The notes under the pieces are model-generated. The model worked only from the letters and a program-made list of their open reading frames with translations. It had not been told where the DNA came from and made no database searches. Shown here one piece after another: positions 452 to 35,309 of a stretch of DNA of 64,000 nt. The stretch lies in contig NC_086374.1 in assembly GCF_036588685.1 (NCBI RefSeq), forward strand, positions 42,718,001 to 42,782,000, given 5' to 3'. Origin of the DNA: Mytilus trossulus (lineage: Eukaryota). The position numbers and the translations under genes were made by a program. Numbering within the stretch: position 1 is the stretch's first letter; each line of letters opens with the position of its first letter.

Positions 452-556
452 CTTTCGTTCCTAGTCCTTTAGAATCTGGTTCATTACTATCTATCTCCAC
501 CAAATTATTTGATGTCATCTCCACAGGTGTCGATCTACTATTCTGCGTTGTGTCTG
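452..556 (-). CDS. Gene A internal exon (105 nt, phase 1-1): ADTTQNSRSTPVEMTSNNLVEIDSNEPDSKGLGTK; gene continues off the left edge
   Basis: Minus-strand acceptor ttttag|CAGAC and donor AAAG|gtattg; length is a multiple of 3; frame matches ORF 312..569. Confidence 0.65.
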
Positions 557-1979
557 CTAAAACTAACAATATTTTGAAAAGTATAAATTATTTATTGATT
601 GCTGATTACTTAACGTCCAGTGGCAAATATTGTATTCATATTCAGGACGAGAATAATAAAACAATAAATACCTGCCATAGGATAGGCCGGGATAACGGAA
701 GGAAAAATAGAATACATTTTGCAAATGAGGATATCATGGGTATGGACAGAAATGTCGCCTTACAACAAGCCACCTACTGACGCTTCAAAATATTGTGGCA
801 TGGGTTCTTTACGTGCAGAAAGTGTGGCGCTCTCTACAGGACGCATCGGATTTTTAAATAACACGTGGTTGCGTATCTATACATCCCGCGCACCCTAAAG
901 CATGCCCTACCTTGGCAAAGATTTCACTGCCGATTGGAAGCAGAAGGAAAATGACAATTTTGCTATTCTCCAGTCACCCATGTTGTGGAAAATATTAGAA
1001 TTTCGAATAATACTTTGGTCGTGTGTAGTGTCACATAATTATATAATATAGATTGATTGATAGATTGTTTGGTGTTTGTTTTACGCCGCGTCAGTGCTAA
1101 AAAGCTATATGACGGCGAGAGGTTATTTAAATATTTTTACACTAAATAATATAGATACTAATCAAAAATATATAACTCCAGAATTTATAGTGTGCACGTA
1201 CTATACATGATTAAACAAATTAAAACGGAAGCTATTAGCTAAGATACTTATGTCGCGTGTCGATGGTAGATACATGTTTTATATCCTGTTTATATTTTAA
1301 AGCGGCTGTTTTCCCCCTTAATATTACATAGCTTTAGTATATTTTTCATTTACGTAGCTTTGGTATTTTTGTTGTATTTGATGAATTTAAAAAGGAGAGT
1401 GATTAATAAATTTTAATAATGAGATAAATAAATTCAAATAAATAATCAAATGGAAAAATAATCATTTCGTAAAGCAAGGTTACTTTGACTAAACATATGT
1501 ACACGGTTTAATTAATAATTCATCTTATTATATTTTGATGGCGGTTGACAATTAAAGAAAAAAAAGATAAATAATGAAAACTTCCTGATTTTCAAATTAT
1601 ATTATATGCATGTTTTTACTCATATATCATTTTGCTCCTTAATGATTATTTTTGGAAATAAAATTTCTATTCGTTATTTTTTTCTGATTCTTGTCGATAG
1701 TAAATGGGAACGTTAATAATGTGAAACAAATAGTTTTCTAAACCTATGAAATCTCGGGTATGCTATGTTCGTTGGGTTGGGAATACTTTACTGTTATCCT
1801 TTATCTGATAAGATGTAAAGAATGGTCGTGGAAAAATTTAAAACATCTTTTATCAATAATACTTAATTATAACTGACTCAGTAACAAAACAAAATACAAC
1901 TTGTTAAAATAAAAAAGTTTTTGGTGCAAATGTAAGATGTTATGCGGAATATAATTAATTAATATAAATGAATACTCAC

Positions 1980-2031
1980 CCTGTCCTATAATATCAACGA
2001 ATGCTATAATAACATACATGTAAGTCGCCAT
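1980..2031 (-). CDS. Gene A first coding exon, signal-peptide-like (MATYMYVIIAFVDIIGQ), phase-1 donor
   Basis: ATG at 2031(-), hydrophobic 17 codons, strong donor CAGG|gtgagt; phase fits the 452-556 exon. Confidence 0.65.
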
Positions 2032-2636
2032 TATGGTAACCTATGTAACATGTGACTAAGCGGATTATACAATGTACATATAATTTCAAGTGTTTTTTGT
2101 TCATTTCAAAGGAAGGATACTTAAGCAAAAGAGGTTTGTCCAAGTTTGGTGTGATTATAAACTGAAAACCAAATACAGCATTACGTACGCACTTTATAAA
2201 CAATAAATGTTGATTATATATTTCCTAGACTGACTATTAAAAAATATTTCCTAATGAGGTTGAAAAATAGTTTTACCATGTTTTTGTAAGTACAAGATTG
2301 GTAAACACGTTTTCAGATTTTTTACTGTTTGTCTCCAACCCGGCAACTGAACAAAATAATTGCAAAGCCAGCTGACTGCTGGAAATAGCCTATGACAAAT
2401 GAGAAGTAAAAAACACTTACTCAACCTATTGAAGTTAAAAGTTCGTGCGAATTTTGTTTGGGAGCACAGTGCAGACTTCTTCTCGTTTGATATAGGCTTC
2501 AAAGAGGGACTTAAGAAAGAATGACATTTCATAAAACTGAAGAGAAAAAAAGGACATTGAAGCCGTCTCATGTTACTTCGAAATACAGTTCACATACAAA
2601 ACCCGCTACATAATTCTATTTATCTCATAGGAATGT

Positions 2637-2800
2637 TAAATAAAAGTGAGAATGGAAACGGAGAAAATGTCAAAGAGACAACAACCCGACCATAGAGCAG
2701 ACAACAACCGAAGGCCACCAATGGGTCTTCAATGCAGCGAGATACACCCGCACCCGGAGGAGTCCTAAACAAATATGTATACTACTAGTTCAGTGATAAG
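2637..2800 (-). repeat. Truncated copy of the Penelope-like 3' tail repeat (see 23191-23836)
   Basis: Near-identical to 23191ff: aataaaa.tgagaatggaaa..gg...gtcaaagagacaacaacccgacc. Confidence 0.8.
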
Positions 2801-3468
2801 TTGACCGAGTAACTCCATTTAGGAGCAGTTAATTATTTTTTAAAATGTAAGTTTTCTGATGACATATGGATGATAGAAGACATGTTTTCTTGTTACAATG
2901 TACTGTCAGGTTGCTCTCTCAATGATGTGATATACCATTTCATGATTATTTCCCTAACAGTTCATAGGATGTGATTAAGTGGTGTATTTTAGTTATATAT
3001 CTATTGGCTGAGAAGATTAAATTTTGGCCTCTAAACTTTGAGTTAAACGTTAAGAAAAATCTTGCTGTGTTTGACTTTAGGTATTTTTTTACACTAACAA
3101 ATCTCCGTAGAACATCGCCCCTCTCCAATTTCTAAGCCTCATACAAAAAAGTTGATATTTTTTCTGACATTGACCTAATATTGATACAGGAACTCGGAAC
3201 TCGAAAAGAGGACTTAACAAAAAGGGTCTAGGTAAAGCGTATATGCGACAAAAGATAAACTTAATTAGTTTCTCCTTCTTCTTCCTTCATAGTACAGGCC
3301 TTCGATGGAAGTATTAGCGTACTGTTTTACGAAAGAGAGACAAGAGATACAAGAGGGACAGCCAACTCATTGATAGAAAATAAACTGACAACGCCATGGC
3401 TAATAAAGAAAAAGTCAAACAGACAAATAATAGTACACAAGACACAACATAGAAAATTAAAGACTTAA

Positions 3469-3945
3469 GATGTCAGACCACCAATTACTCCCTCAAATTT
3501 AGAACGTATGTGAAAGTAGACCTACTGGGACAAAAAGATAGCGCATTTGATTTCATTGTCTACTTAAACTCACCAACAAATTTGCAGAAATGAAACTTTT
3601 GGTGAAAGGGAGACACATTTAGACCATTATGAGCCAAAATTCACTTGTCTATGCGTTTGCATTAAAAATTCAGGATCAATGCGCTACATAATTCACTAAT
3701 TTAAACCAGAAAACCGGGAGTTATTTTGGTAGTATCTGTGTTTTCAAGATCAGAAATTTCTAATAAGGCTTTAAACATTGGTGATCATTGGTTGAAAATT
3801 GACATGCAGAAAGATGATACATGTACAATTCAGGATATACCTGGTTTCCTTGAAGTTAAACTTAATGGGTAAAATATTTAGAAAGCTGTGAAAATTGCAA
3901 AATTTGGTTAAACAGATAGGAATTTTGAATTGGTGGTCTGACACC
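3469..3945. mobile_element. Non-autonomous TIR element with TTAA TSD (Kolobok/piggyBac-type MITE), nested in another repeat
   Basis: TTAA|gatgtcagaccaccaatt ... aattggtggtctgacacc|TTAA; splits the repeat agaaaattaaagac..gcaatacgaacc. Confidence 0.8.
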
Positions 3946-4783
3946 TTAAGCAATACGAACCCCACCAAGAAGTAGGGGTGATCTCAGGTGTTCCGGAAGG
4001 GTAAGCAGAAAAAGAACCAATTTGAAAGATATGTTTTTTGAGTTATTGCTCTTAGACAGACAAAACAACTGCATCGGGGGACATTGAAACCGGCAGTTTG
4101 TTTTTACTAAGTTAAACAATCTCCTCGAAAAGCATGATTTCTTCTCTTGATTTGATTTCACATGCACTTATCCACAAAACATATTTACATGCTTAATATA
4201 TATATAAGTATATAAATTATTTATTTCCGAGACAAGTGCCAGTGTGCGATTTGCTAATATTTGTACCGGAAAACTTATGAAAAAACACGAATTGAGGGAA
4301 ATTGTAAGATTTAGGCATTTCTATATTGGCTTATTGAGCTAGACATTACAAAGTAAATTACTTCAGATATTTTTTATGATTTGCAAAGATGGAAACATGA
4401 CTGTTATGTAGAATTTATAGATTTGACCTAAAATAAACACGGGACTCCTGGTTATATGCAATCAAAATTCTATTCAACTTGCAATGAATTAGTTTCCATA
4501 CAAATGAATCATATTCTTGTAGTTTTAATTCGACATTTAAACAAAAAATAAACGTTTGAATTCGAAATACTTAATCAAACATCTTATAAACTTCAACTTA
4601 AAGACCATTTATTAAAGGTTATGAAAATATGTGAAAGGAGTTTCCGACACTGCGTAATCGTACCAGTATACAACATCGGAAGTCAGTTTCCTTTTATAAT
4701 TACACTGTAAACACGTCCTCATGGGATTAATGTCACTCCAAACATGATGAAATTTTATTAGGAAGTAATTAGAATAGACAAAT

Positions 4784-4838
4784 ATGGCCGCATATATGAT
4801 CGCAATAGTATTCATCATGTTTTCACAGACAAGCAATG
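4784..4838 (+). CDS. Gene B exon 1, signal peptide (MAAYMIAIVFIMFSQTSN), phase-1 donor
   Basis: ATG at 4784, hydrophobic core, donor AATG|gtaaga; phase matches the acceptor at 7965. Confidence 0.7.
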
Positions 4839-5129
4839 GTAAGAGAGCAATATTCTGGTTAAGAAAATAGGCGCTTGCTTCTTAATATGCATCCATCTTT
4901 GTTCTTTTGCTAGGAAAGTTTGTTGTATTGTCTACTTCCTATTTGTTTTCAATTTTGTCCTACTGCTTATGTCAACACAGTATCCTTATCTAGGAGTGTA
5001 CATTAGATTCGTCATTCACATAAATGTTTGGAAACAATGTCATGAAAACATTGAAATGACAAAACTGCCTAGTTTATAGGTCTGAATTTCTAATTCTTTT
5101 GGGTTGATATAAAAACGTTGATATAAAAC

Positions 5130-6373: not shown

Positions 6374-6416
6374 AGCGTTCCTGATGAAGGCGAATCAAGA
6401 AAAGTTCCTCGGGCGC
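6374..6416 (+). ncRNA. Degenerate type I hammerhead ribozyme motif
   Basis: gcgttc-CTGATGA-agg cgaa tca a-GAAA-agttcc-TC-gggcgc: core boxes and stem I present, stems II and III imperfect. Confidence 0.5.
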
Positions 6417-7128: not shown

Positions 7129-7916
7129 ACGGGGCGCCGAATGGGACTCTTGTGGTTTTGTACTCGAAATTCAATTTTTTATGGACAAAAGTGACTTTTG
7201 TTCAACAAACATGAGTTCAGTTTAACAAAATTTGTAGCATACTACAAAGTTAAAATTTTGTCATACAAAATTATCTTTCAGTGGACAAAAGTCACTTTTG
7301 TCATGAGAAAATTCATTTTTTTTTACCTTATTTGAAAATTAGGCGACAAAAGTCAATTTTGTATGCAAATTAGTTTAGTTTGGATTCTGTGAGACAAAAT
7401 CGACTTTTGTGAGACAAAATTGACTTTTGTGAGACAAAATTGACTTTTGTGAGACAAAATTGACTTTTGCGAGACAAAATTGACAAAATTGAATTTTGTC
7501 GTCACAAAATTGCGTTTTGTCGAGGCAAAATTGAGTTTTGTGAGACAAAACTGACTTAAGTGAGACAAGATTGTCTTTTGTGAGACAAAATTGACTGACA
7601 GAACTAAATTTTGTCCCACAAAACTAAATTTTGTCTCACAAAACTAAATTTTGTCTCACAGAAGTCACACAATTGACTTTTATGTTTTTATTTCCATATC
7701 GGGTAACAAAAGTCAATTTTGTATGCAAATAAGTTTACATTTGCATACGTTTTTGACAAAATTGACTTTTGTCATGACAAAAATAAATTTTGTCCTCACA
7801 AAATTGAAGTTCTCATAAAACAAGTCTGTATTATATAGTTTTGTAAGACAAAAATGATTTTGTTATGACAGAATTGAATTGTGTACAAAACCATAATTGT
7901 CTCATTCGGCGCCCTA
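7129..7916. mobile_element. MITE with TIRs (GGGGCGCCGAATGgGAC / GTCTCATTCGGCGCCC) and an internal 20-bp repeat array (GAGACAAAATTGACTTTTGT)
   Basis: Inverted termini at 7131 and ~7915; tandem quasi-palindromic units at 7390-7680; lies in gene B intron 1, ~50 bp from the acceptor. Confidence 0.8.
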
Positions 7917-7964
7917 TTCTGAAGTGTTTTATCTTACGATAATTGTTTTCCCCTTTTATTTTAG

Positions 7965-8958
7965 CTGCAACTATTACACCGACTATCGGAGAAATGGGGT
8001 CTGGTGACATAGATGACCAAAATACTTCAACAAAAATCGTCACTAATAAATATCATTCAACAGAACAACTTAAAGCCATTATTAACACATCAATTAAACC
8101 ACAGACGTTTTCTGGTCAGAATATTAACCATTCTATGGAAGATACTACTAGTGAGGAAAATAAGCTCTCATCATCATCAGCAACCACACCTAACTTATTT
8201 GTAGAAGAAACCACGTCTACCGTTACAACAAATGTAGAGACATCAGCTAACAATGGTATCAGCTCAACGCTCCAACCTTCGTCATCCACAACAAAACGGA
8301 GTTTTACTACTTCGCCAATTATAACATCGATTTTAACATCATTTAAAACACAGAGAACGACACAACATTTAACTACAGAATTACGCAATGAAACGGACGT
8401 AACGGAGAAAGAAACAACATATATTCACAGTACGACCGTAACGAAGAGACCAACAACTAATAGTCGCAGTGAAACGGAAGTAACGAAAAGACCGACAACT
8501 TATAGTCCCAGTACAACGGTAACAACGAAGAGACTGACAACATACACGCGAGGTAAAACAGACGTAACCAAGATACCGACAACTTATATTAGCGTGACGT
8601 CTTCTTCGACAGAACAATCTGCTATTGTTGAAAATGAAACCACAAAGTCCTTATATACAGACAATGCCATAACCGAAGAAACATCTTATCATACTGTAGA
8701 AAATGTTCATTCAACCGAAGCTAGTCTCCCAAGTAGTACGTTGGATGTTGTCAAATCAACAGTCACAACAATTAAACCACCAGATATTTCACAGACTGTT
8801 TCCTTTTCAAATATCACAACAGCAAAAACAAGCAATGTCAGCAAAAACAAAGAAACAGGAACAGAAAACGATACTGTACTTGATCATCTCGCTTATATAA
8901 TACCAAGCGCTTTTATTATACTATTGGCAGTTTTAATTAGTGCTGTATGCCTTAACAG
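7965..8958 (+). CDS. Gene B exon 2: Ser/Thr-rich mucin-like ectodomain with ~14-aa VTKRPTT repeats and a transmembrane helix (YIIPSAFIILLAVLISAVCL)
   Basis: Within ORF 7943..9028; acceptor ttttag|CTGCA (phase 1); donor AACAG|gtttgt (phase 2) just after the TM. Confidence 0.85.
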
Positions 8959-9577
8959 GTTTGTTATAATTAGTATAGTGTACAGACGACACCACTACTT
9001 CAAGAAAAAAATCAACTTGTACATTTAAATATATCATTACCAAAAGATAACCAAAGCAGGAATTAACTGATTACCACACATGTAATAAAGCAAAAACACC
9101 AAAAGTTAAAGTTATCTCTCACAAATAGAGGTGTCATATCAAATATACACCAATAACACGGCTTTTAATAAAATCTTTGTTGATGAGAATCAACTAATAT
9201 ATAGGATCATTATGGTACAATCAAAATTGTTTGACTTAGTGTAGCATTCAATCAATCAATCAATCAATCAACTATAATTACCACAAAAAAAACAAGCAAC
9301 AACGTTTAAATATTAAATATTATATATAAAAAGTTGTACACCAAAAAATCCCAAAGTTTATATCATTATCAAATATATAAGAAAAAAAAACCCGCTTAAT
9401 GACAAAAGTTACCAGCATCGCATGCAATTTTTTGCTCAATCTTACGGTGATATAAAGTAGACAAGTTCCATAAAATCTAACAATATTGAAGTCAGTGAAA
9501 TAAAAGAGGAACTTATAATGTTCTTATCAATTCAAATCGAACGTATTGATTCTTTCTGTTGTATCATTTTCCTTTTT

Positions 9578-9778
9578 GGGAGCTAACATTTGATTTTTAG
9601 GGGGAAAAGGATGAAATTTGGAAAAAAAAATCAGGACAGGAGTAATGAAAAAAGGCAGCACCGAAAAGAGGGAAAACAAATAAATAAAAAAATGCAGGAC
9701 AGCGATTATAACAAAAAAATATGCAGGACACAATTTTCCATCCTAACGCCCCCTTAAAATCAAATTGTAGCTCCCTTA
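9578..9778. mobile_element. Small MITE (TIR GGGAGCTAaCATTTGATTTT / AAAATCAAATTGTAGCTCCC)
   Basis: Inverted termini visible; in gene B intron 2. Confidence 0.6.
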
Positions 9779-9914
9779 TATTACCCGTTTAAATATTACA
9801 ACGATTACTGTTAGATTCAAGATATCTTATCCAGTATTTTATGTAGTAAAACACCATTAATGCAACCAAACAAAGTGTTTACATACGTATAGAACATTTT
9901 CACATTTGTTTTAG

Positions 9915-10779
9915 GTATAAAGGAAGGAAAAAGGCAGAGAACATAGACGGTGTTCAAAAACGTCCCAAAAATTCTTCCAATCCTGCTTTTATGAAAGAAA
10001 ATATGAACGCGTTGGCATACCAATTTCAATCTCGTGATTCAAAATTGCCGTCTGCTTTTAAAACAAAACTTGAAAACCCTGGAAATGGTTTTGAAGAAAT
10101 AGAATTGAGAGAAGAAAATCAAATTGCAGAACAAAATTCAGATAAAAATCAAACAACAGTAGAAATGGAATCAAATTTTAGCCCAATAGGTAAAGACAGA
10201 AGTTATTTCACAACCATAGTAGAAAATGAACAAAATTATGATACAGCTCACACTCCACCACTTCCGGGGAAAGGCCATAAGATTCAAAATGTTGCGCATG
10301 ACACATCAGCTTCCCATTACGATGTTCTTCCTCTAAGAGAAAGCTTACCAGTCAAAAAAAGAAGACAGAATTCAATAGACGAAATACCTGGGTTAACAAG
10401 AACAAACCTTTACAAAAACCCAGAATACGATGTTTTACCTCTGCGAACATTTGCACATAATCAATTACCGAGTGACTCCCGAGATAGAACAGTTTTAGAA
10501 ACAACAAAGCAAGATAATAACTTATTACATAGTGTTCAAGCAGGAAATGAAACAAAAAAGCCAATGGAAACTTTTAACTTCCCCGATGAAGTGTTCAGCG
10601 ACGATCTAAGTGCACCAGGCAGTAAAAGTGAAAGTGAAACTGAGCAAGACATTACAGAACAAGAAATGATTGGAAACAATGCCGTTGATCAATTGAAACG
10701 TCGTGAGCCAGCATCACGTGCACCCTCGTTCGTGGCACTACCGAGAGCAGCATCCGGATCGCTAAGAACAGCATTGTAA
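9915..10779 (+). CDS. Gene B exon 3: ~288-aa cytoplasmic tail (RYKGRKK stop-transfer, Tyr motifs, C-terminal RTAL). Full gene B is ~637 aa
   Basis: Acceptor ttttag|GTAT gives AG+G=Arg, in frame with ORF 9991..10779; 55+994+865=1914 nt. Confidence 0.85.
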
Positions 10780-11557
10780 TAATTAAACATTATGTTATTT
10801 GGTTTTTGTTAGTCTATAATTATCTATTAAACAATTATGAGAGTTTGTGAAAAATGATGGTAAAACCATGAGAGAATATTGTTGCTTGTGAATAAGTTTA
10901 CGATCTTGTTGAACAAAATTTCCTTGTCGACCTCCCTTTGATTGTTGTTGTCGATATTACTTCAAAGTATATAAATTGTGTCAATTATGATAAGGATGTA
11001 ACTTTATAAGAAAGAAACTAAAAGTTAAAAATGTGTGAAGACTGAAACATTCAGACGAAATAGTCCACCCTACAATAAATCAAAAGACTTGTACTTTTAC
11101 GAAGTGAAAACCTACTATAAATTATAAATTGAGCAAAACGATATCCAAGAAAGATATCAGTTGCATCTAACATACAAACATACCTATCTTAATCATGTTC
11201 TCAACCAGTCAAATATCTACAAGTTAATACCATGTTGACCAAATCGACCAGAGGTCTAATGCAATTTCAGTGTATACCAACTTTAACGATATCTCTTGGT
11301 TGGTTGGTTGGTTGGATATACTGCAATATGTTTACAAATATATTTCTTCTACTTAGTAACAGGAAGCAAAAGAGTGTCTCTACTAGATTGAAGTAAAACA
11401 AAACGCACAAACGAATAAAACGAATGTGGAATAAACACTGATACAACAGCAACCCGACAACACAGGGAAATTAAAAAAAAGATGTCTGCATATCGTCATC
11501 GACAATGTTCCAAAATATGTCAGGCTTTCAATTGATCGGAGTTTTGAAAAGCTGTTA

Positions 11558-11727
11558 AGTTAAGACGCTTGCACTATTCTAAAAAAATTGTTAAACATGA
11601 CATAGGCTATATTGCTAATTACAACAGAGAGTTCAAATATATGCTTTTGATAAAAATATTTTTATTTAAAGAATATATTTGAACTCTCTGTTGTACAAAT
11701 TTTTAGAATGATGCAAGCGTCTTAACT
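11558..11727. mobile_element. ~170-bp fold-back MITE
   Basis: AGTTAAGACGCTTGCA ... TGCAAGCGTCTTAACT outer arms; inner arms TACAACAGAGAGTTCAAATATAT / ATATATTTGAACTCTCTGTTGTA. Confidence 0.75.
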
Positions 11728-12059
11728 GATGCTCGGTTTGACTTTTTTATTGTATAAATTTCAAGATTGTTATAGTTTAATCTAAGAAGACGAAAAGATG
11801 ATTCATTTAAAATCTGAATCTTACTTAGGAAAGAAATCTGTTATCCGAAATATTTATAAATAATTACATTTATAATCACTTTTTTTTTGGTGTTGTGTAC
11901 ACTTTTTCGACGTTTATATAATTTATTTATTGTGTACATGTTTCCTTACTTGTAACGATCCAGCGCCCTCGTCGGGAAAATCGTTGACTATTATTCAGTC
12001 GTTATATATATATACTTGATATATATATAACGGCTGAATAATAATATACTTGATATATA

Positions 12060-13068: not shown

Positions 13069-13379
13069 TTACACTGCATGTCTGGATTTTGTGTCATATG
13101 ACAAACTGCCCTGTGATTTTCGTGGTACATAATCAACTTTTGTCTCCCAAATGTCGTTAAAAACTACTTTTTCTTGATCATCTTCGTTCTTGTTATTCCT
13201 TCGGATGATGCATACGATAAAGGCAGCCATCATTAGTAATATTCCTCCTAACATGGCGGGAACTAATGAAAAGGAAAAGGAATAAGAGAAATCTGAATTT
13301 TGTTGCACTGTCTTCATGCGATAGTTTGATGAAATTGTTGCATACAGAATTCTACCACAGCCAATCAATACTAAAACAC
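13069..13379 (-). CDS. Gene C exon 3 (end of TM3, TM4, C-terminal tail) of a claudin/PMP22-like four-TM protein (~219 aa)
   Basis: Acceptor ttacag|GTGTT (phase 1), in frame with ORF 13069..13368; FSFSLVPAMLGGILL TM4. Confidence 0.85.
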
Positions 13380-13809
13380 CTGTAAATAGATTTGTAGTAC
13401 AAATATCACTGATGTAAATAGTAACCTTAATTTTGATACTACAATGGTCTAAAGTTCACATTTTCAAATCGTGAATCCTCGAAAAACAGTTTAAACAAAA
13501 TAATGAACATTTTATACAACGACGTCAATGCGGGTCATTTGGTTTAACAAAAAAATCTAATTGATAATCAAGGTTTTCGTCACTCATTTGACAAACAAAC
13601 AAAAGATGAAGGAACAGAGCTAAATCCTAGTTTATTTCAAATCATTATTTAGTTCTGCATCTTTTCGTAGGGCCATTGTTGTTACATCTGACCAAATGGT
13701 ATCAGACAATATCGTGATTGCTTGTTAGTGTACAACGCTGTATGTTATTGATTGATGTAACAATTATTTATACCATTGGCAAACAGGAAGTTATTGCACC
13801 ACTGATGTC

Positions 13810-14520
13810 TGAACTGCTTACACATTTCAACGCAACAGTATTAAGATCCAGACCAAAAATGAAATCTTTCTTATCCATAGAAGCCATGAAAAGTTCGTAT
13901 TTTCCTTTTTAAATGAGTGTTATTATATTTCGACCTATCGGAAAGCAGGTAGGTGTTGAACAAAGGCAACAGTTGTATACCGGTGTTCAAAAGTCATAAA
14001 TTGATTGAGAGAAACAAGGCTGATGTTAAAATGGCTTACAAGCTAATACTCAACATTATCAGGCTACAGACCAAATATAAAATAGTTCCCGTCCAAATAA
14101 GCATGTATCAAAAAAGTGTTCTATATATACTGAGTGTTGTTACCTTGTAAATAGTAAAACATGAATTGACAGATTCGCATATTGCTTACTCGCTACTACT
14201 CAACATTATCAAGATGCAGACAGAATATAAAATAATTCCATAACAAAGATTCCACGGAAAGTTTAACGCAAATTGTCCTTGTATTGTGAGTGTTGTGCCA
14301 TTTCAAACAATCGCATGCAGGAAACGGATGTATGGTCGGTGTCAAATGTGTTTACACGCTACAACTAATTATTATCAAGCTCCAGCTAGACCAAATATAT
14401 AAGTACCCCCTGTAACAGAAACCAAGAAAAGTTGACGAAATTGTTTTATGAAAAGTATTTCGGACGGACGGAGAGGAACGGACACTAGAACTGCTTTCGC
14501 TTTTGGTGACTCAGGTAAAA
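13810..14520 (+). mobile_element. Decayed Helentron-associated (HINE-like) element: ~4 degenerate repeat units followed by a (GGAC)n-like tract
   Basis: Recurrent gcttac...caacattatc...agaccaaat...gagtgttgt units and cggacggacgg at 14461. Confidence 0.5.
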
Positions 14521-14780
14521 TTCATAGTTGGCCTAGTTATCAAAAGTGTTTTGCAATTTATTGGTTGAGTTTTCGTTAATAATTCAACAGCATGAGTTTG
14601 AACAATATTAACATGCAAGTTCGAAAAGGCAACATTAGTTCTCGGCTTTATACTCATACTATTTTTTATACCTTCAATTAATACAGTGCATGTCACCCGG
14701 TCAATGCATATTAGTTACCCATTTGTATTTAGTAACATATGTTTATACACTATGTATTCACTTAGAAATTTGATACGTAC

Positions 14781-14923
14781 CTGCTATCACAAACATGATT
14801 ATCGCAGTAACCAGACGCTTGTGTGGCCAATTGTGTCTTGCATCTAGAACCAGTACTATCACGCTTATAACTGATATAATTATACTTAGTAAAACTTCTA
14901 CATGAAACTCCAACATCCAAAAA
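14781..14923 (-). CDS. Gene C exon 2 (TM2, loop, TM3: FWMLEFHVEVLLSIIISVISVIVLVLDARHNWPHKRLVTAIIMFVIA)
   Basis: Acceptor tttcag|TTTTTGG (phase 2), donor GCAG|gtacgt (phase 1); 143 nt fits the frame. Too short for the ORF track. Confidence 0.85.
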
Positions 14924-15574
14924 CTGAAATTATCAATTTAGAAAAACAGGAATAAAAGTCAAATAAAACTCATTAAAAAAAGCATGCTATTTGTCTAACA
15001 ATTAAACAAACACCCAATTGTTCAGAGTCTATCGTTTGTTGGCGTGGTTTATATATGTTTCTTGTTTTTTTTATATATTGATAAGACCGTTAGTTTAACA
15101 CTAGTCATTTAAAGGCCATTCACAGCTTACTATTTGTTGTGAGCCAAGGCTCTGTGTTGAAGGCCGTACTATGATCTATAATTGTTAACTCTTTATACAT
15201 TATGGCTTTGATGGAGAATTGTCTCATTGTCACCTATACAACATCTTCGTATTTTATATAAAAATAAAGCATGCATGCAACAAGGTCAAGATTTCAACTT
15301 GTACATAAATAAAGGAATATACCAGCATCTGTACAATAACTCAAAATATACGGAATCAAAGATCAATTACAGTTAATGACTTTGATTACAACGTGTATTC
15401 CAAATGATTTTTTATAAGTTTAAACAAATTGTATAGTAAGTGTGCAACAGAAAACATATAAAGAAACTGTAAACTACGATCTTTACATACGGTTCTTAAC
15501 TAGTAAATTGACATTGTTTCAAAAGTTTAAATTTTGAAAATATCTTATTTGATATACAAGCTTTTATCACTTAC

Positions 15575-15780
15575 AGGTCAATTCCCTTTTTGTAATGGTA
15601 TATTTCACTGAACTGGTTGACTGTACAAGAATCTGCACAGGTTAATCCATAAAACAATCCTATATAAACATGGTATCCCGAGGTTTTGTATTCCTTTACC
15701 ATCCAACCTGGAATACATGCTGCAATTGTAATCAACACTGAAGCAGCTATTCCTAAAACAATTGGTACAAGAATTTTCAT
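15575..15780 (-). CDS. Gene C exon 1 (TM1 and first loop with W...GLFY...C...C claudin-like signature)
   Basis: ORF 15571..15780; donor GACCT|gtaagt; 206+143+311=660 nt. Confidence 0.85.
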
Positions 15781-16674: not shown

Positions 16675-18877
16675 AATATAATTGCTGGCGCCGACCCCTC
16701 TTCTAACCAGGAACAATGACGTAACAGTAGTGCAATGTAAACACAATATTTAAAATCAGTTGAAAAGTGCTCAACTCATCAGATTTAAAAACAACAACAA
16801 TACAGATCTGAGAGTGCTCGCAGTTACTGAAAGCTATTATATAATAGTTCATATTACGCCAATAACAACTAATAAAAATTAAAGTATTCAAGATGATGTA
16901 TAATAACCTTGTGCAATGACAAAGAATAGGTATCGAAAAATTTATTATTTTGTTGGGTTTTAATTCATTGATAAAAAACCAAATAATTGTACTTATAAAA
17001 AAAATACCCAAAGATCTCATAAAATAACGAAGAATACATTTTTTTAGAAAATATATAAAAAAAAAAAAATAATTGACCATTGGCTAAAAAAACAACCTCC
17101 GCGCTATCTATTCAATTCATATATGAAACATGAAGAAAATTGAATCAATTGATAGGTCTGTTGCCCCAAGTTTGACAGAAGGTTCCAAACAATGATGTAA
17201 GTAATGTGCCCATGGGTTTGCCAATGGATATATGATGCACTAGTTTAAAAAAAAAGGAGATTTCCAATGAGGCAACTATTAACTAGAAACAAACGGAAAT
17301 AAATATGAATAACTATAAGTCACTTGTGACCTTTATCAATTAGAAAACCCATATTGTATAGAACGTTACAATAAGCATCGATATGACAAAATGTGAAACA
17401 ATTACAAAAGTTAGCAACGGCATAATATTTTATGACAAAACGATAAAAAAAAACCAGTATGACAGCCAATGACTAACAGACTCCGGACTGCCCACTTTAT
17501 TTATAAATGTAAACGTGTTATTAACAATATGTCCGCATTATATTAATTTGGTAACAATTTGATTTTGGATTCAACGCATCTTTTGATGGGCTTACCGTGT
17601 TTTGTCTATCAGCCCATAGACATAAGTTTGTCCACTGTTTTCTACATTTAAAAATGTCTGTCAGAAATATGACAGCTTTTGTCCATTCGTTTGAAGTGAC
17701 TTATACTTTGATTTTGCCATTTGACTAGGGACTTTCCGTTTTGAATTCCTCTCGGAGTTCAGTATTTTTATGATTTAACTTTCTGTCATCTTTACAGTTA
17801 CAGTAAATTGTTAATATTACACTTTGTAATAAACCACTACGCGGGTTATACAGTGTGTACCACATTTTTTATGTTTTGTCTTCATAGACATAAAAATATT
17901 AAAGACATTTCAGATTTATTTTATTCAAGCATAAGTAGAGACACGTGTCTATTGGTGTATACTGTATTTGAACTCTGGTATATAACTGTTGTCCTTATTT
18001 AGTTTTATAACGTCCTTTGCTGTGTAAAATTACTACCTCACAGACACGTAAACCTCTTCTGTTTTTATTGATATTTAGTTCATTATATACAATATCTTAT
18101 AAATACAAAATAACGCTTTTCTGCCTTTTCGGGTGCTGAGGGAACAACCATTTTACTTTAAGGGGATTTCTGTTTTTTTAACCCAGTTTTGCCGCACATT
18201 ATTGTTTTTAAAATTTAACACTATAAGGTATGAGAAAAATCTGGATTCAGATAAAAAAATATCTGGTCATCTGCTAGACCATGCAAGGACCGAAGCTCAT
18301 AAACTCGGCAATCAAACGTAAGACTTCGGGAATGTCCGGATAGCCTACAACCTTGCTTTGGAACTTGGTGCTAGACTACAATATTGTTGTTCTTCATCAA
18401 ATTCGGGATCAGGGGATCAGAATATTGTTTTAGGGGAAAAAAACCTAACCCTCTCCCCTTTTTATAAAGTTAAATGGTCGTTCAGTAACTATCTGTTGAT
18501 TTGTATTTTTTTTTGCAGAACATATGCATTTTAATTGAAATTTAACTTCCAAATGTTTTTCTTTCGAAATTTTGTTTGTTATTACTTGACTCAACTAGTA
18601 AATATGACAATTTATAATGTATATTGACAGGAAATAAACCAACTTGTTTATTGTTTCATTCGTTTCCTTTTTAATGAAACAATTATATAGAGTGGTATAG
18701 TAGTCGACATTTTAAAACTTTTCAATTGAACAAACTTCCGTTTTCCTTATGACTGCTTAACAGCGATCAATGTTTGATAGAAAATGATCCAATGGAAAGC
18801 GACTTTTGAAAAAACTAAAGAACACAATAGTAAAGTTTTTAATGTTGTTTATATTGCTTTGAAGTACTAAGTAAACA

Positions 18878-20701
18878 ATGCAGTTGTTCCTGATTTATAG
18901 CATATTATTTCTGGTGAATTTTCAGTATGAAAATGGACAAAGATGTGTCGGTAGATCATGCAACATCTTTTATGATATTTTTCCTACAAGTGTAATCTGT
19001 GATGTGACCAGTGAGGACCAATGGTGCATGGACAGTTTTCGTAAACTTTTGAACGATACAAAGAGTTCTTACTTAGGAGACGATCAATTTACATTGGAAA
19101 TAGAATGTCATTGTGGTGGAAATATAAGTATAAAGCAACCAATAAGATTACCGGGAATGACAGCATGAACCGTCAGGAACTGTTATATTATCGATTATTA
19201 TGATTATGATTTTTCACCAGCAGTTTTGTTGATCGAATCGGTACTGCAAAATTTGAAATTTACCAACTGCAAAATAGAGAACAGCTACTTGGTTTTTGTG
19301 AAACACATACAGAAAAATTTCAGAAAGTTACTGACATACGAGAAATATCAATATCCAACACTTTACGAACGTTCATTTTTCAAAATAGTTCTTTAAATTT
19401 TATTGAACAGCCAGAACGGTTCTCTATCGCAAACAAATCAATCGAAGATCTAGAGGAGTATTATAGAAATGAACTGAAACGGCATGAAAAATGTGCTCAT
19501 AATAATCTCGAGTATATTGAAATGTCATCTCTAGATAGAATCCCCGACGAAAGAAGCATTAACAAATTATTACAAAACGGCATATTTAACTCCTTTTATG
19601 TAATTAACTTGACTGATAATAATTAAGCACGGACTCCAAGAAGTTTGTTCACAAATTCTATGTACGAAACTTTTGATAGATTGGAGCAGATTGATCTTTC
19701 CAGGAACAAAATTGAGGACATAAGCTTAATTCACAAACCAATTACGTTCAAAAGTCGTCATCTATACGTTGACTTGTCAAAAAATAATATAAAAGAAATA
19801 TCAAATCAAGTTATGGCGAATTTAATAGTTTTTTTTATCGTAAGAAATAATGTTAATATAAGAGAAAACCCGCTTATATGTACATGCAACCAAACATTAT
19901 TGTATGCATTCATTGCTGTGAAATGACACGAAGTGGAGGCAATATACATATCTTAAATCAATGCAGTGTTTAGATCAAGAAAGCGAAAGAAACTTGAAAA
20001 ATATATCTGAATATTGATTCGAAAGAAATATGTAAGAAGACTGAAAGTTTAGTAGGTGCTAGGGAGGGAATATTTGAAAGGAATATATATTATTTTCTCG
20101 CATTTTCGCTTGTTCCTCTTGCCATTCTGATTGCGTGTCTACTTTTTAAATACAAATCTAGAATTGCACAACTGTATAGAGTAAAAACTTCCATTCAGTG
20201 TCATTGTCCTGATAACCCCAAAAATTACGACGCTTTTATTTCATACAGCTCGTCAGATGAACGATGGGTATATGATGTTTTGTTTAAGAGATTGCAATAT
20301 TTGTTACCAGATGCTAGTCTTTCTCTGCACCACACAGATTTCAAACCTGGTGCTTGTATAGCCGAAAATATCATCAACAGCATTGAGAACAGCAGATTTA
20401 CACTGTTAGTTCTGTCAAAAGTGAATGGTGCCAATTGGAATTTCAGAAGGCTTTTCACCAAACATTGAAACACCGACACCATTTACTTGTGTTGCTCATT
20501 GAAGACATTGACTTTAGTTTGTTAGACTGTGATCTTAGATTGTTCCTGCAAACTTATACTTATCTCAAATACTCCGACAAACTGTTCTGGCAAAAACTTA
20601 CAGGAACATTACAAGTTTCAACAAAAAGTAATACTAGAAGTCACTCACATAACCCTGTGTGTAAGCAACTTCTTCCATCAGACAATGAGTCATGTGTATA
20701 A
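18878..20701 (+). pseudogene. Intronless Toll-like receptor pseudogene (signal peptide, Cys-rich N-terminus, LRRs, LRRCT, TM, TIR)
   Basis: LEQIDLSRNKI, VDLSKNNI, NPLICTC, TM FLAFSLVPLAILIACLLF, TIR YDAFISYS...DFKPG...EWCQLEF...FWQKL. Stops at 19166, 19624 and 19924; frameshifts including ~20420. Confidence 0.9.
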
Positions 20702-26418: not shown

Positions 26419-27043
26419 TTAATCATAAGAAGTGACTTTTACTTCAAAAGTAGGATGACTGTTTATACTGGAATCAGTTTGTATATCACTATCATCTTCT
26501 ATAGAGATTGCATCATTTGTGGAAATGGTCTCCGTAGATTGACTATTGTATTGAGACATACTAGGGTCTGTACTCGTCTTATGTACTTCTAAATGTGATT
26601 TTATATTTAAATCATCAGTAAGGTCATTCAAACTTTTCGATTTAGACACTTTTCTTTTGAAATTGTCTTGAGAATTGGTATTTGTAAAGCTTCTTGATCT
26701 TCGCCGGCGTATTGTCTGCCACATGAAAGCCATAAGCTGAGATGGTCTATTCAAATATTGTGGTCGATCATCTACCCTGTCTCTTTTTGTATTTTTTTGG
26801 CGATTTGATCTGTTCGATTTTATTGATTTCATTGAACGGTTGCTAGATCTCCGCAATAAAGCACCAAAACTTAAATCTGTAAATAAACTATCACGTGGTT
26901 GGTTTATTTCAACAGGTAGATTTAGTCTGTCGTCGATTGGTTGCATATCGATATTGACAGAACTGCCTCCAGTACTGTTACCACTGGAAAAAGAAACCGG
27001 CACTTCATTGAGAATTTCCTGTTTGTAAGGTGTTGATCTGCAG
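26419..27043 (-). CDS. Gene D last exon: ~208-aa Ser/Arg/Asp-rich cytoplasmic tail
   Basis: Acceptor ttgcag|CTGCAG (phase 2), in frame with ORF 26419..27081; a second in-frame AG lies 6 nt downstream. Confidence 0.8.
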
Positions 27044-28269: not shown

Positions 28270-28348
28270 CGTTTTATACAACAAACTAAAACGACAACTG
28301 TTAGTACTACGAACACAACTCCACCAAGTGATCCGCCAATAATACTAC
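28270..28348 (-). CDS. Gene D transmembrane exon (GSIIGGSLGGVVFVVLTVVVLVCCIKR)
   Basis: Acceptor ttttag|GTAGT (phase 1), donor AAACG|gtatgt (phase 2); 79 nt fits the frame. Confidence 0.85.
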
Positions 28349-29245: not shown

Positions 29246-29884
29246 CTATAGAATCTGCATTGTTGTTACCCTTTGGTCTATTTGTTTCATTGGTGGATGG
29301 TTCTATCTGAGAGTGCGAAGAAATGTCTGAAGACCAAATTTCTGTAGTAGATATAAGAATTGTCTTTGAAGAAGTTGATGTTTCTGGTGTTTTTGCCAGT
29401 GTTGATGATGGTAATGATGTTAATTCTGTTGTTACTGCTGCTAATGATGACGATGATGTTGAGGATGATGTTGGTGCGGACGACGATGAAGGCGACAACG
29501 ACTTCGATGATGATGGTGATGACGTCGATGTTGATGATGATTGTGATGATGACGATGAAGACGACAACGACTTGGATGATGATGGTGATGACGACGATGT
29601 TGCTGACGATTGTGATGACGACGATGTTGCTGACGATTGTGAGGACGACGATAAAGACGGCAACGACTTCGATGATGATGGTGATGACGTCGATGTTGAT
29701 GATGATGATGATTGAGAGGACGAAGACAAAATCGAAGACGTCGTCGTCAATGATGATGATGACGATGTTTCTGGATAATATACTAAAGAGGTAGTTTCCA
29801 TCGTATTCTTTACTGTCCACGAAAATGTCCTTGGTTCTGTAACAGTTGTAAGGGACTCATCAGGAGCAGTAACTGAAGCTTCGT
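29246..29884 (-). CDS. Gene D poly-Ser/Thr mucin-like ectodomain exon (639 nt, phase 1-1)
   Basis: Acceptor taacag|ACGAA, donor ATAG|gtaagg; within ORF 29160..29912. Confidence 0.85.
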
Positions 29885-30702
29885 CTGTTAAAAGAAGAAA
29901 GGTTTTAAACAAACATATTTATAACCGCTTATGCCTTGTATTTTATAATGCTAAAACTAAAACGGCACAACATGAATTTATTTTGAAAAATGTCTTTTTC
30001 CATAAACATCCCAATACCATAATAAAAAAAATGAGGTCACCGTTCACTTAAGCTCACAATCTGCCTTCGAAAGAAGAATGCATTTTTGTAAAGGTACTTT
30101 TTTTTATGTTGAACTGATAGGAGAAATAGTAGTAATATCAAAATAAAAAAATAAATAAATCACAGAAATCACTTAAATTTCACAACTGTTTAGTTAAAGT
30201 TCAGCTGATTTGAAAAAAAAAAAAAAATAATATAGGTCACAGATGAGTTAAAAAAGAATATGTTATCTTTAATGTCAACAAATGGTATTGTTGCACCAAA
30301 GGGAGATAATTTAGAGCATTTCCAATGGTATTAACATTTTAAAGTCAACTGGGGACAAAATGAATCGATATTCCGGGTTGATTTTTGTATCATATCATAA
30401 AGTAAAAACTAATAGTGTAATAAGTCAAATTTGTAATAAAAAAAATAAAATGTTAAAAGTTTTGCTGAAATTGTTGTAGTCTCGAGCCTCCATAAATTAA
30501 AAAATCGGGCATTTTGATAACATCACTTTCAGACCATTTTTTTTAACAAAGTATATAATATTTGTTCCAACAAGATTTTCAAATTGAAACTGTGCTCGAA
30601 TCGTTAATAATGCAGAAATGCCGGATGCCAATAGTTCACAACAGTATTTAGTTATGACTTTTACAAATATGTGTATTTAGGCATTTGCATGATAGTTATT
30701 AA

Positions 30703-31351
30703 AGCCTCGGTCACACCTTACCGGATAGCTCGAACGGACGCCTAACGGATAACTTTTTTTCAATCCGTTCAAGTCCGTTCTTATCCGTTAGGCGTCCGTC
30801 CATATCCGTTAGGCGTCCGTTAAGCGTCCGTTTTATCCGTTGACGTCCGTTCTGTCCGGTGGAAAATTTTGAGCATGTTCAAAACTTTGAACGGACGTCC
30901 AACGGATAAAATGTCCGTTGAACGTCCGTTAGGCATCCGTTATGCGTCCGTTTTGTACGGTACTCGTCCGTTTTGTATCCGTTACGTGTCCGTTATGCAT
31001 CCGTTATAGATCCGGTAGACTTATTCACCAAGAGACGTCTACCGGACGCCTAACGGATAAAACGGATGTTAAACGGACATTAACGGAAGGATAACGGTTA
31101 AAACGGATGTCTACCGGATGTAAAACGGACAAATGCCAATTGAAATTTCTCATGGTTTATTGCCTTAAATTTTTAGATGGTTTATTGCCTTTAATTTTCA
31201 GAATATTTTGTTCATCCGTTTTATCTATTCGCTTCCGTTGGGTGTCCGTTTAATCCGGTACTCGTCCGTTGGATGTACGTTCGACGTCCGTTCTGTCCTG
31301 TACGTCCGTTAGGCGTCCGTTCGAGCTATCCGGTAAGGTGTGACCGAGGCT
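30703..31351. mobile_element. PIF/Harbinger-type MITE (649 bp) with TAA TSD and internal TCCGTT/AACGGA repeats
   Basis: TAA|AGCCTCGGTCACACCTTACCGGATAGCTCGAACGGACGCCTAACGGA ... exact reverse complement |TAA. Confidence 0.9.
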
Positions 31352-34300
31352 TAAACTAGTAATGATACTACCGATGCATTTCGTTTGATTACAGTAAAAG
31401 AACAATGTAATACTTAGTATACGTAGATATAATCTCAAGACAAATTATTTTTGTGAACGAAACACCTTCAATGATTTTGCATCTTAATGCTGCATAACAA
31501 TAGGTATGCTTATGTCGCAAATATTTTCATCAATATTATTCGTGAATTACGTATCAAGTCAGATATATGCGAGTTGTTATCCATTCCTTTAATGAATTTG
31601 AGCGTTTTATTTTGCCATTTTATTTCGGACTTTCCGTTTTGAATTTTCCTCGTAGTTTGTTTTTCTGTTTGGTTATCTTACTTTTTAGTCAAAATAAAGT
31701 GTCTAATTCGCTGTCAACAGCAGCACTTTGCCGTATCCTTTCTATTCGCATACTTAACTATATCATCAAACATGAGAGATATATATGATGAAATCGGCAT
31801 TTTGAATCCGTAACTCCTCCTAAACAAGTAACTCAATATTTAGATAAATGAGTCCTTTTACTCTGCTAGATGTACGTTTACATAAGAAAATACCTGTACC
31901 AAGGCAGGAATATGACAGTTGTTTTCTACGGGTAAAAGGTTTGATGTGTTCGAACGTTGATTTTGCCGTTTGACAACGGACTTTCCCTTTTGAATATCCC
32001 TCGGAGTCCGATAGTTTATTTTACTTTTTAATTAATCCAATAGCATTAAATACCGGGTATGACGGTATGTGGTGTAAAACACGTATGTCAGTTCTGACGG
32101 GCTTTTAACCACGTAAATCGACTGTTTCTGTAGATATCAAAATGTTGGTTTAGTTTATTGATATCTTAATTTTGATAAAGACAAGAATACTATAAGATTG
32201 GTTGTGGTTCAACCTTTGGAAAATGTTCACATAAGTGTACAAAAAAACAGGCAAAAAAAAGAAAACTCGGTTTGATTTATACCATCATTGGACAAGGAAA
32301 GATAACTGAGATCTAATGAATTAACAACTATGTATTGGTTCTTTGGTCATATATCTAAATCTATAAACAACTTTCATACACGTGAGAGGTTAAGCTAGCT
32401 ATAAACCCACCGTTTTGTTCGACAAATTCATGTACAAAGTCAGAATGATACAATTGGTTCCGAGTCGTTCCGTTGATTGATGTAGTCGATCGTTTAGTTT
32501 TGTCAGGTTTTATGAACTTGCAACCTTTTCAAATTACATTGGAGTTCAGTGTTTCGTTAATTGATGTTTTTGTATATTTTCAACTTTAACTATTTCTGTT
32601 CTACTGACTAATGTTCTTGCAGCTCGTCAGCTGTCAGGGAAATCTTGATCGAGTATTTTGACGAAGATTGTGACAATAACGGTAATTGAAATGTATGGAG
32701 CTAAAAGATCTTCGAATCTCTTCGATAAATTACTATTCCTTATCGTCTATAAGAGGAAAACAACGGATCAACTGAATCACTGAACTACAACAAAGGCAAA
32801 ACAAAGGCAAATATACAGAGAAACAGACAGTAAATAACAACTTTCATATTAAAATTACTTTTTTATCTTCGCAATAGTCATGTTTGTTTCATGAACAACA
32901 GTGGAATACCGTAAAGTTATTGGTATTCCTATTGAATACGTACTATGCTCCTCTCATCACATGTGTGTTTGTTCGTTGTTATAAAGCAGTTTTTATACAA
33001 ATCATGAAAACCCGGCGAAACGCTTCTTGATATATTTTTCAATCATCTGCACATATGTAGACCCCATTTGCGCTCTACATGTTTCATATTTCATAATTAT
33101 ACAAATGATATGTATCGGCCTTTATAATCCATCTGTCTATATTCAATGATATGCTTGTTATAGATATATGTTAGAATTTTTCATATCAATATTTTTAACT
33201 AACATTAGGACAAATATGGCATAAAACTTACATTCGGACAAAGACGGCAACTGATATACATTGAGGACATAGATGACAAATTTCGTAAAATTCAAAAAAA
33301 AAAACTCTTATGATAAACAATGTAACACTCAAACAATTTTAAATTCATTTGAAAAAAAAAACAATGGTTAAATGACCTTTGTGTGGCTAATCCAAATTTT
33401 GAAGAAAGAAACGAAAATATTTTGAGGAACATTTTTTGAAAGATAATTGCGCCATTTGAAGCAATACAAATACATAGGCTCTAAAATACAATTACTAAGT
33501 ATTTGCTAACAGGAAAAATCTTATTGGTTCCAGTATTGTGTACTCTATTCAATGACAATTTAACACAGGAAATTTTCCTGAACTTTGCGTCAATTATGTT
33601 ATTATTAAGGAGGTACTAATCAAAACTGAAAACTATCAAAACATTTCCTTAGTGTCGCACATTGGTAAATCAATGGTTAATGGAAAATGAAGCAAACTAG
33701 TTTTTGGAGAATCATTAGTTTTTTTACAAACATATATACGATATAGATATAGGAAGATGTGATGTGAATGCAAATGAGACAACTCTCCATCCAAATGTAT
33801 GGATATGTATGGATATGTCTGGTTTATGGTTTTATTTAGAAGAGCCGTCAATGATATTTTAAATTTTTTTTATAAAAACAAAATACATGTACATTGTTTT
33901 AAGCTTGAAACTGGTCGCTTTTATAATTTTAACATATATTAAATGAAAGATCGTGTGCAATCTGTGGCGATTGAGTAATTGAAGATGAATATCGTTTTTT
34001 ATATTTTTATTTTTAAAAACACGAAGATATGCATCAAAGTTATATACATTTGTAAATACAATACTATTGGGGAAATCCTTCAGCTTTCAAACTTGTTCAG
34101 TTGTTATCAGTACAAAAAACTTAATTAGTTATGGAATGTTGTTGCCGAAAAGCTTTGCTGCTAGGCCGCTGTTATTCAATTGTATATCTATATAATTCCC
34201 TCCTATCTATTATTGTTATTGTTTGATGTATGTTCGTATTGAAATTGATGTATATTTTGTTATACTTTTATAAGCAGTATTGCTTTTTTTAAATAAAGTA

Positions 34301-35254
34301 TAAGTATTCCCATTATAACTTGATTTGCTGGATAATAGTGTATGGTTTGCTCAATCTGAATAAGTGTATATGTCGTAGCTGATTCGGTGTGTGTAGCTTG
34401 AATAGATTTCATTTTTATTAATGAGACGACTTCGATAAGGATAAATATAAATGATCGTGAATTGGTCAAAATCGCTACATTTTATCACAATTCATCTAGA
34501 GACGTTCGCCACAAAATGAAAATCAACAAATTGTATAATTTCATAATGCTAGCAGGAATTATATAAAAGGGTAAATCCAGTGTTTAAAAGTATTACTATT
34601 TATAAAGCAAAAAAGGTTTAAGAAATTTATCGATAAATCTTTATGTTTGGTTTAAAATATTTATTTCTAAAAGTAACAATACTGTTGCACCAACTAATTT
34701 ATAGTTTGAAGCAAAAAAAAATACTAAATGTATCTACATTTTTTACAGTAAAATTCTTTTACAGTTTACTCTGAACATAACGCAACATCGTCTCATTCTA
34801 CTGATTAGTTATGACTATTGTATGAAATCTAACTCCAATATAAAGATGTAGGATAGCAAATTCAAAGAACTTCCTCTATAGTTTACTTGTTTTAAATTAA
34901 TCTTATCTTTGGTAAATTGACTTTTAAAATCCAGCAAAAAGTTAAGTGTTTAGTAACTCATAAATTCCCGTTCGTTAATTCGAGAAGAATGCTAGATGAA
35001 TCTATTATATAAAATAGATATAGGAAGATGTGGTGTGAGTGCCAATGAGACAACTCTCCATCCAAATAACAATTTAAAAATTAAACCATTATAGGTTAAG
35101 TACGGCCTTCAACACGAAGCCTTGGCTCACACCGAACAACAAGCTATAAAGGGCCCCAAAATTACTAGTGTAAAACCATTCAAACGGGAGGACCATTTAA
35201 TTCGAAGATGAAAGTGATTCTAATATAATTAACAAAATATGGAACGTCACTCAC

Positions 35255-35309
35255 CTAAGTTTATGTATGTTAAAATCCAAATGTGAAAAATGAGTGTTGA
35301 AATGGACAT
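35255..35309 (-). CDS. Gene D probable exon 1, signal-peptide-like (MSISTLIFHIWILTYINL). Full gene D is ~465 aa
   Basis: ATG at 35309(-), donor TTAG|gtgagt, phase 1; 55+639+79+625=1398 nt. Extra exons in the 5.4-kb intron are not excluded. Confidence 0.6.

Follow-up and report, generated by a model that had tools for sequence, protein, structure and literature searches.

Does a shared exon plan make neighbouring genes a family when their proteins carry no recognizable domain? The question is raised by three genes, A, B and D, that lie within 38 kb of DNA (D being unconfirmed) in, and just left of, a 64-kb stretch of the Mytilus trossulus genome (NC_086374.1, 42,718,001-42,782,000). This stretch is called the window below, and its own positions are used unless stated otherwise. 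A preliminary description, made from the letters of the window, had read the three genes as a fast-evolving family of glycocalyx receptors or transmembrane adaptors. For the present analysis the window, which sits on a 104-Mb contig, was extended by 158 kb on its left and 40 kb on its right (262 kb in all), and genome searches covered the 1.3-Gb assembly, the matches obtained per search being lower bounds.

The observation itself turned out to be largely right, the family interpretation is unsupported, and the functions proposed below are read from motifs. Taken together, the evidence makes it fairly probable that A and B are spliced mussel genes, that each encodes a membrane protein with a single pass and no globular domain detected, that D is a likely third, and that the three are likely unrelated neighbours. 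As found, these are orphan membrane proteins already present in databases as 'uncharacterized', the label carried by Mytilus database proteins of this kind, in line with the expectation that homology-based annotation would leave such genes unnamed. Six locus ids are absent from the full texts searched; supplementary tables, outside that search, may list the loci.

Gene structures

All 12 splice coordinates first proposed lie at GT or AG, and only the acceptor of gene A has to be moved, from 556 to 562. The signal-peptide exons of A, B and D are 52-55 nt long and end in phase 1 as described, with open exon chains, GT..AG introns and the expected phases. Gene A, on the reverse strand, begins with a 52-nt signal-peptide exon ending in phase 1 (1980..2031), followed by a 111-nt, phase 1-1 exon for a short ectodomain (452..562). 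Its transmembrane (TM) segment and tail, predicted to lie outside the window, were found 1.5-3.1 kb to the left on the same strand, as a separate TM exon of 76 nt, whose end splits an Arg codon in phase 2, AG|G (G000:C2:42716432-42716507), and a single tail exon (G000:C2:42714879-42715308), the two being spanned by L002:4879-6507. With acceptor 562, which lies 6 nt upstream of 556, the model equals XP_063423011.1 letter for letter (222 amino acids (aa), uncharacterized, Mytilus trossulus). The annotated A proteins use 562, and the two additional residues that this acceptor gives also occur in the named full-length orthologs; of the tandem acceptors, 556 is therefore likely the incorrect one. 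Alternative use of the tandem AG acceptors 556/562 would alter the signal-peptide cleavage region by two residues.

Four other Mytilus species have named orthologs of A, and a further ortholog (229 aa, 53% identity) lies on a 1,317-nt contig that is too short to hold the introns, which gives indirect, ortholog-based support for splicing of A at the transcript level. Region by region, A is 96-99% identical (signal peptide 90%) to the M. edulis and M. galloprovincialis proteins. The tail is 99% identical in these two species, 90-92% in M. coruscus and M. californianus, and 62% in a distant ortholog whose ectodomain is 40% identical. Seven A-like proteins were considered as paralogs of A and rejected as such, there being one A locus in the genome; they are taken as orthologs from other species. 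A search of metagenome contigs with the A alignment returned no match.

Gene B, on the forward strand, stands head to head with A, with 2,752 bp between the start codons. It consists of a 55-nt signal-peptide exon in phase 1 (4784..4838), a 994-nt exon that holds both the Thr/Ser-rich stalk and the TM and ends in phase 2 within an Arg codon, AG|G (7965..8958), and an exon for a 288-aa tail with PPLPGK, two copies of YDVLPLR, NPEY and a C-terminal -TAL (9915..10779), giving an uninterrupted frame of 637 aa. The proposed junctions 4838/7965 and 8958/9915 were seen in transcript contigs obtained with positions 7850-11900 from 4 runs in 3 studies. The 956-nt GT..AG intron 8959-9914 is skipped in 4/4 of these runs, and the end of exon 1 joins 7965 in two of the four, among the loose ends listed, where the loose contig ends at 7964 match the exon end. 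A single contig of 2,090 nt runs through the three exons. The B stretch is contained in 20 of the 22 listed sequencing runs, none of which is recorded as RNA, so splicing is inferred from the GT..AG joints. Since contigs span the B exons, there is no extra ectodomain exon of B in those contigs. Full-length B orthologs were found in M. californianus, in M. coruscus and in Logan contigs of ~2 kb, and these support the tail exon as well.

Gene D is predicted on the reverse strand, with a 55-nt signal-peptide exon in phase 1 at canonical sites (35255..35309), a 639-nt exon in phase 1 for a Ser-rich stalk that is 59% Ser + Thr and partly made of tandem repeats (29246..29884), a separate 79-nt TM exon in phase 1-2 with the split codon CG|C (28270..28348), and a basic, Ser-rich tail exon of 207 codons (26419..27043). 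Its junctions 35255/29884, 29246/28348 and 28270/27043 are canonical and keep the frame open, as a prediction at the sequence level.

Thus, in B and D the TM is followed, as first described, by a phase-2 intron that splits a juxtamembrane Arg codon and by a single tail exon in an open frame. A Ser/Thr-rich second exon is found in B (39% Ser + Thr) and in D, but not in A, whose 27% over ~35 aa makes no mucin stalk. The absence of a globular ectodomain was confirmed: no Cys is present in any of the three ectodomains, a Pfam scan gave no family above cut-off in A, B or D, and a strict filter detected no hidden phase-1-1 exon with strong splice sites in the five introns of A, B and D. AlphaFold, run on shallow alignments, was confident only for the TM of A and B, with a signal helix and a TM helix as the only structure of A (mean predicted local distance difference test score, pLDDT, 51.5) and a TM of moderate confidence as the only one of B (mean 31.0).

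Relationship among A, B and D

The three genes show no detectable homology to one another, each is single-copy as far as the genome searches go, and the tail of A is 90-99% conserved across Mytilus, none of which fits a fast-evolving family. In local alignments against 1,000 shuffles, the pairwise comparisons of the tails gave p = 0.50, 0.79 and 0.89, and those of the ectodomains p = 0.79, 0.62 and 0.44. Against a profile built from nine A tails, B reaches 0.2 bits and D -3.1 bits. Searching by blastn between the gene regions produced matches only in introns or flanks and none in exon DNA. Genome searches with the tails of A, B and D, the B stalk and the D TM exon each returned one match, the gene itself, among the matches listed, and the extended stretch of 262 kb, whose leftward part had been suggested for finding more paralogs, revealed no fourth member. 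An inverted duplication of A and B, both of which start with MAxYM, was considered and rejected; the B orthologs start with MAANM, and there is no A-B blastn match.

What the genes do share is the arrangement of their introns. According to PMC1626468, an excess of phase-1 introns at signal-peptide cleavage sites is general in animal genes; for phase-2 TM-exon junctions, a literature search found no paper. A control was therefore assembled from this genome, using the DNA downstream of 42 WSC matches and upstream of 28 kinase matches, plus the neighbourhood of the locus. It kept 12 hand-judged TM segments: two from WSC loci, that of the activin type II receptor at a distance of 57 kb, and 9 of the 16 sense-strand kinase-side rows, the other 7 having looked like introns. 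In this small control, which consists of predicted exons only (no RNA check), a phase-2 AG| junction is seen in four segments, among them that of the activin receptor, and a phase-1 junction in one; one segment is ambiguous, and the remaining six lack a donor over the 14 residues next to the TM. Several more WSC genes and one SRCR gene have TM and tail in one frame, which would lower the phase-2 share. Among segments with an intron beside the TM, the phase-2 Arg junction predominates (4 of 5-6), yet it is not universal. By chance alone, the exon plan would match in all three genes with a probability of roughly 0.03-0.3. The sharing in three of three genes is mildly suggestive rather than diagnostic, the genes having been chosen for this likeness, and the agreement in intron phase is likely no more than the common arrangement of genes for type I membrane proteins.

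Several points weigh against unrelated neighbours. The phase-1 then phase-2-Arg pattern occurs in all three genes, compared with a third or less of the control receptors. The TM regions beat shuffles (p 0.002-0.03), as do the A/B signal peptides (p = 0.027), though any hydrophobic-then-basic segments would exceed shuffles. Finally, disordered paralogs can lose all detectable similarity, so absent homology is no proof.

In the best-surviving alternative, A, B and D would be old tandem duplicates from a single family of bivalve type I receptors lacking domains, diverged so far that the exon plan is their last trace; we regard it as unlikely without dismissing it. It would account for three such genes in 38 kb with signal exons of near-equal length and a phase-2 juxtamembrane Arg intron in 3/3, for the similar size of the TM exons of A and D (76 and 79 nt), and for the linkage of A and B, which share one sequence in M. 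californianus and bear successive accessions in M. coruscus. In addition, a clam homolog of A described below has a Thr-rich stalk, and the ancestor of A may have had one. However, no similarity is left in tails, ectodomains or exon DNA, whereas motifs of A that persist to the clam are absent from B and D. Moreover, the plan is not identical: the TM is a separate exon in A and D and part of the stalk exon in B, the Arg codon of D is split differently from those of A and B, and a mucin-like stalk is not found in every member (~35 aa in A, ~307 aa in B and ~213 aa in D). The same junction also occurs in unrelated receptors, and no further members were seen in the 262 kb. The locus thus serves as a caution against concluding that genes form a family because their intron phases agree around the signal peptide and the TM.

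Status of gene D

Among the three neighbours, D is likely real but unconfirmed, as judged from its reading frames. It is improbable that D is not a working gene, i.e., that it is a lineage-specific, dispensable or decaying locus that leaves only the head-to-head pair A and B. Joined, its four exons form an open frame of 465 codons, the donors are strong (scores 4.7-6.2), and the tail frame is far beyond chance, ~0.0006 such open frames being expected in the window. What speaks for a non-working D, and against counting it as a third gene, is a set of blank searches: no relative was found among proteins of 364-2,000 aa or in metagenome contigs, and none of seven D-derived single-exon frames was matched exactly in the protein collection. 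These blanks are weak because the same kind of search missed this genome's own B protein (0/3 for B-derived frames). No distinctive motif is present in D, which would act as a Ser-rich glycocalyx spacer.

The tail of gene A and a clam lectin/WSC receptor model

Outside the mussels, a single protein connects to A. Searching 1.84 billion protein representatives with the A profile gave seven matches, six of which are A orthologs or fragments, while the remaining one is a clam protein, Tegillarca granosa KAJ8302738.1 (a WSC domain-containing protein model, locus KUTeg_019134; 643 aa; E 4.6e-9; hhalign against A, 97.7%). Restricted to the tail without the TM, the match still reaches 30.1 bits, compared with a shuffle best of 11.1 (1,989 of 2,000 shuffles reported). 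In the mussel genome, the sole match of the clam protein's tail is gene A (E 0.003), its two other matches being Thr-rich stalks. The two tails share the TM-proximal motifs SY[LVI]N.G[FY], PP.KP.R, SLP[KR] and IP[FY]IDAS.[DE]NLD.I in the same order. In contrast to A, which is without such an ectodomain, the clam model has C-type-lectin-like and WSC regions (C-type lectin E 0.16 and WSC E 1.5e-4, both under the Pfam cut-off), a Thr stalk ahead of its TM, and a longer tail. The sequences suggest that the two tails share an ancestor, and that A likely lost its ectodomain or else the clam protein gained one; as a third option, the clam model may fuse two genes.

What counts against this link is that it rests on one gene model (a cluster of 1) that could be a fusion. 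In the clam tail only the first YxN tyrosine of A is kept, a point against the motif-based functions proposed below. The final motif of the clam tail reads IPFIDAS, and IP[YF]IDAS is therefore probably phosphorylation-independent. Feature comparison places the clam protein close to a mollusc cluster with 60 members (0.91), which fits the clam architecture being real but does not show the tail. No WSC or lectin ectodomain was detected by tblastn near A in the 262 kb; the nearest WSC match on the contig of A is ~7 Mb away, among the matches listed (150 of 270 candidates scored). A profile of the A tails plus the clam tail, run over 869 kb (42 WSC loci and the neighbourhood), found no convincing relative, the best other match having E 0.025. 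A literature search found no paper on WSC/C-type lectin transmembrane proteins in Mytilus.

Genome-wide, at least 142 WSC-domain matches are present, many of them in tandem arrays (e.g., C3:28.0-29.0 Mb and C12:3.2-3.4 Mb), and a literature search found no description of a WSC expansion in bivalves.

Predicted functions of A and B

The two alternatives first offered for the supposed family, glycocalyx receptor or transmembrane adaptor, appear to suit different genes, the former B and the latter A, and their assignment to a single family is the part that lacks support. The predicted A protein has the build of an adaptor, with a short ectodomain, a single TM and a non-enzymatic tail. This tail holds four tyrosines, and all 9 aligned A sequences carry the two YxN motifs, PPxKPTRR and IPYIDAS unchanged, so that putative docking sites of both kinds, conserved YxN tyrosines and a proline-rich SH3-type site, occur in every row. 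With ~35 aa, the outer part would offer little room for binding. Once phosphorylated by a kinase, the two YxN tyrosines would serve as docking sites for Grb2-type SH2 proteins; SH3 domains would bind to the PPxKPxR stretch and a further partner to the IP[YF]IDAS motif. A thus likely works as a membrane docking adaptor, without being assigned to any named adaptor family. All of these functions are, however, deduced from short motifs of a kind that arises by chance, which speaks against them.

A bolder proposal combines this with the clam link: A would be a LAT-like invertebrate adaptor, born in mussels by whole-ectodomain loss from a C-type-lectin/WSC receptor, that kept the tyrosine tail and couples other surface receptors (perhaps B) to SH2/SH3 proteins. 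This proposal is tentative, and we would not call it probable; the receptor-to-adaptor reading of A is nevertheless the sole result here worth follow-up.

In B, the stalk carries eight N-glycosylation sequons and one acidic GSG site at residue 31, and one of the two YDVLPLR copies in the tail lies in a context like that of an immunoreceptor tyrosine-based inhibitory motif. The GSG, YDVLPLR, NPEY and -TAL motifs are kept in both other species, across which the ectodomain is 66-69% and the tail 80% identical. An O-glycosylated stalk with one glycosaminoglycan site would serve as a spacer or modulate adhesion, and the basic juxtamembrane stretch, the NPxY/YxxL motifs and a class I PDZ end would link the protein to the cortex and to endocytosis.

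Neighbouring genes and other features

Between B and D, two further elements had been proposed. The Toll-like receptor (TLR) pseudogene (18875..20701, forward strand) was borne out as a broken single-exon gene with LRR, TM and TIR, in which the LRR and TIR matches are interrupted by in-frame stops and frame changes; it is a pseudogene or an assembly error, and the immune flavour of the neighbourhood appears to depend on it. The claudin/PMP22-like gene (13069..15780, reverse strand; predicted exons 15780-15575, 14923-14781 and 13379-13069) has a predicted intact four-TM frame of 219 aa, but Pfam gave no claudin match on exons 1 and 3, and we take it to be claudin-like from its topology and a W-GL-C-C pattern.

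Further along the window, a 367-aa frame at 45425-46528 (reverse strand) combines tandem repeats of 8 aa with an NHL/beta-propeller region after them (weak Pfam matches) and resembles the last exon of bivalve TRIM-type genes. Its translation identifies the 706-aa frame at 47847-49967 (forward strand) as an open reverse-transcriptase frame of a long interspersed nuclear element (LINE)-type element. At 57223-58353 (forward strand) lies a CCDC90-like gene in a single frame (Pfam E 2e-44), the N-terminal half of which contains a Ser/Thr-rich repeat. To the left of the window, frame reading revealed an SLC45-type transporter at ~10-13 kb, the activin type II receptor at ~57 kb and a bZIP gene at ~77 kb; to the right, a 1,305-aa open polyprotein-type frame of a long terminal repeat (LTR) retrotransposon is found (L018:4266-8180, forward strand). 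Elsewhere in the genome, near-identical kinase-domain frames stand head to tail every 1.7-1.9 kb at C3:16.31-16.36 Mb (~30 copies), and arrays of the same type and spacing occur at C4:20.13-20.15 Mb (~11 copies) and C1:26.00-26.03 Mb (~16 copies), an unusual tandem amplification.

Comparison with known systems

A molluscan cluster of single-pass genes without known domains recalls the polymorphic transmembrane clusters PTC1 and PTC2 of the snail Biomphalaria, which are described as clustered single-pass genes of 166-530 codons with no known domains (PMC7494358), with 3-85% allelic divergence in PTC1 (GRC) and PTC2 and whole-gene indels in PTC2 (PMC7494358; PMC10635097). That the mussel locus is their counterpart, encoding hyperdiverse domain-less immune receptors under pathogen-driven balancing selection, is very improbable: it shares the gross type, contains a broken TLR and has in B an ectodomain that diverges faster than the tail, but neither A, nearly identical between species, nor B, whose contigs mostly agree at 90-99+% and show, among the gaps listed, one in-frame gap of 3 nt in exon 2, is hyperdiverse in the cross-species proteins and the contigs of four runs, and there are only three genes, with no paralogs found for any and no mutual homology.

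From its predicted features, B looks like a sialomucin or part-time proteoglycan. The CD34/podocalyxin sialomucins and CD43 have a signal peptide, a Thr/Ser stalk, a TM, a basic juxtamembrane stretch and a class I PDZ-type end, all of which B shares. CD34/podocalyxin proteins carry a Cys-bonded globular domain, whereas the B ectodomain has no Cys; B further differs in its 288-aa tail with repeated YDVL and NPxY and in giving no Pfam match to them. With the syndecans, B has in common an acidic Ser-Gly site near the N-terminus, a Thr-rich spacer and a PDZ-type end. Syndecans have a short conserved C1-V-C2 tail ending in EFYA, while B has a single SG site and a long tail that ends in RTAL without C1/C2 blocks or EFYA, and again no Pfam match.

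Transmembrane adaptors have been described mainly from vertebrate immune cells, and are defined by a short ectodomain, one TM and a non-enzymatic tail with tyrosine motifs (PMC3342071). On the basis of that source, A resembles LAT, NTAL, PAG, LAX and GAPT in its short ectodomain, single TM, YxN tyrosine motifs and proline-rich stretch. Unlike them, it has an ectodomain of ~35 aa behind a signal peptide and a tail with four tyrosines, compared with 7-10 in the named adaptors, and it shows no sequence match to these families (no Pfam match at E <= 0.05 to the named vertebrate ones); its Atlas look-alikes all score < 0.9. The juxtamembrane CxxC palmitoylation site, which is present in LAT, NTAL and PAG and absent in LAX, is absent in A too, there being no Cys beside the TM. 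The tail of A is instead homologous to that of a lectin/WSC receptor model. If the receptor-to-adaptor reading is true, gene A would be a candidate link in bivalve receptor signalling, and a conserved mussel adaptor with a traceable lectin-receptor origin would offer a testable case of adaptor birth.

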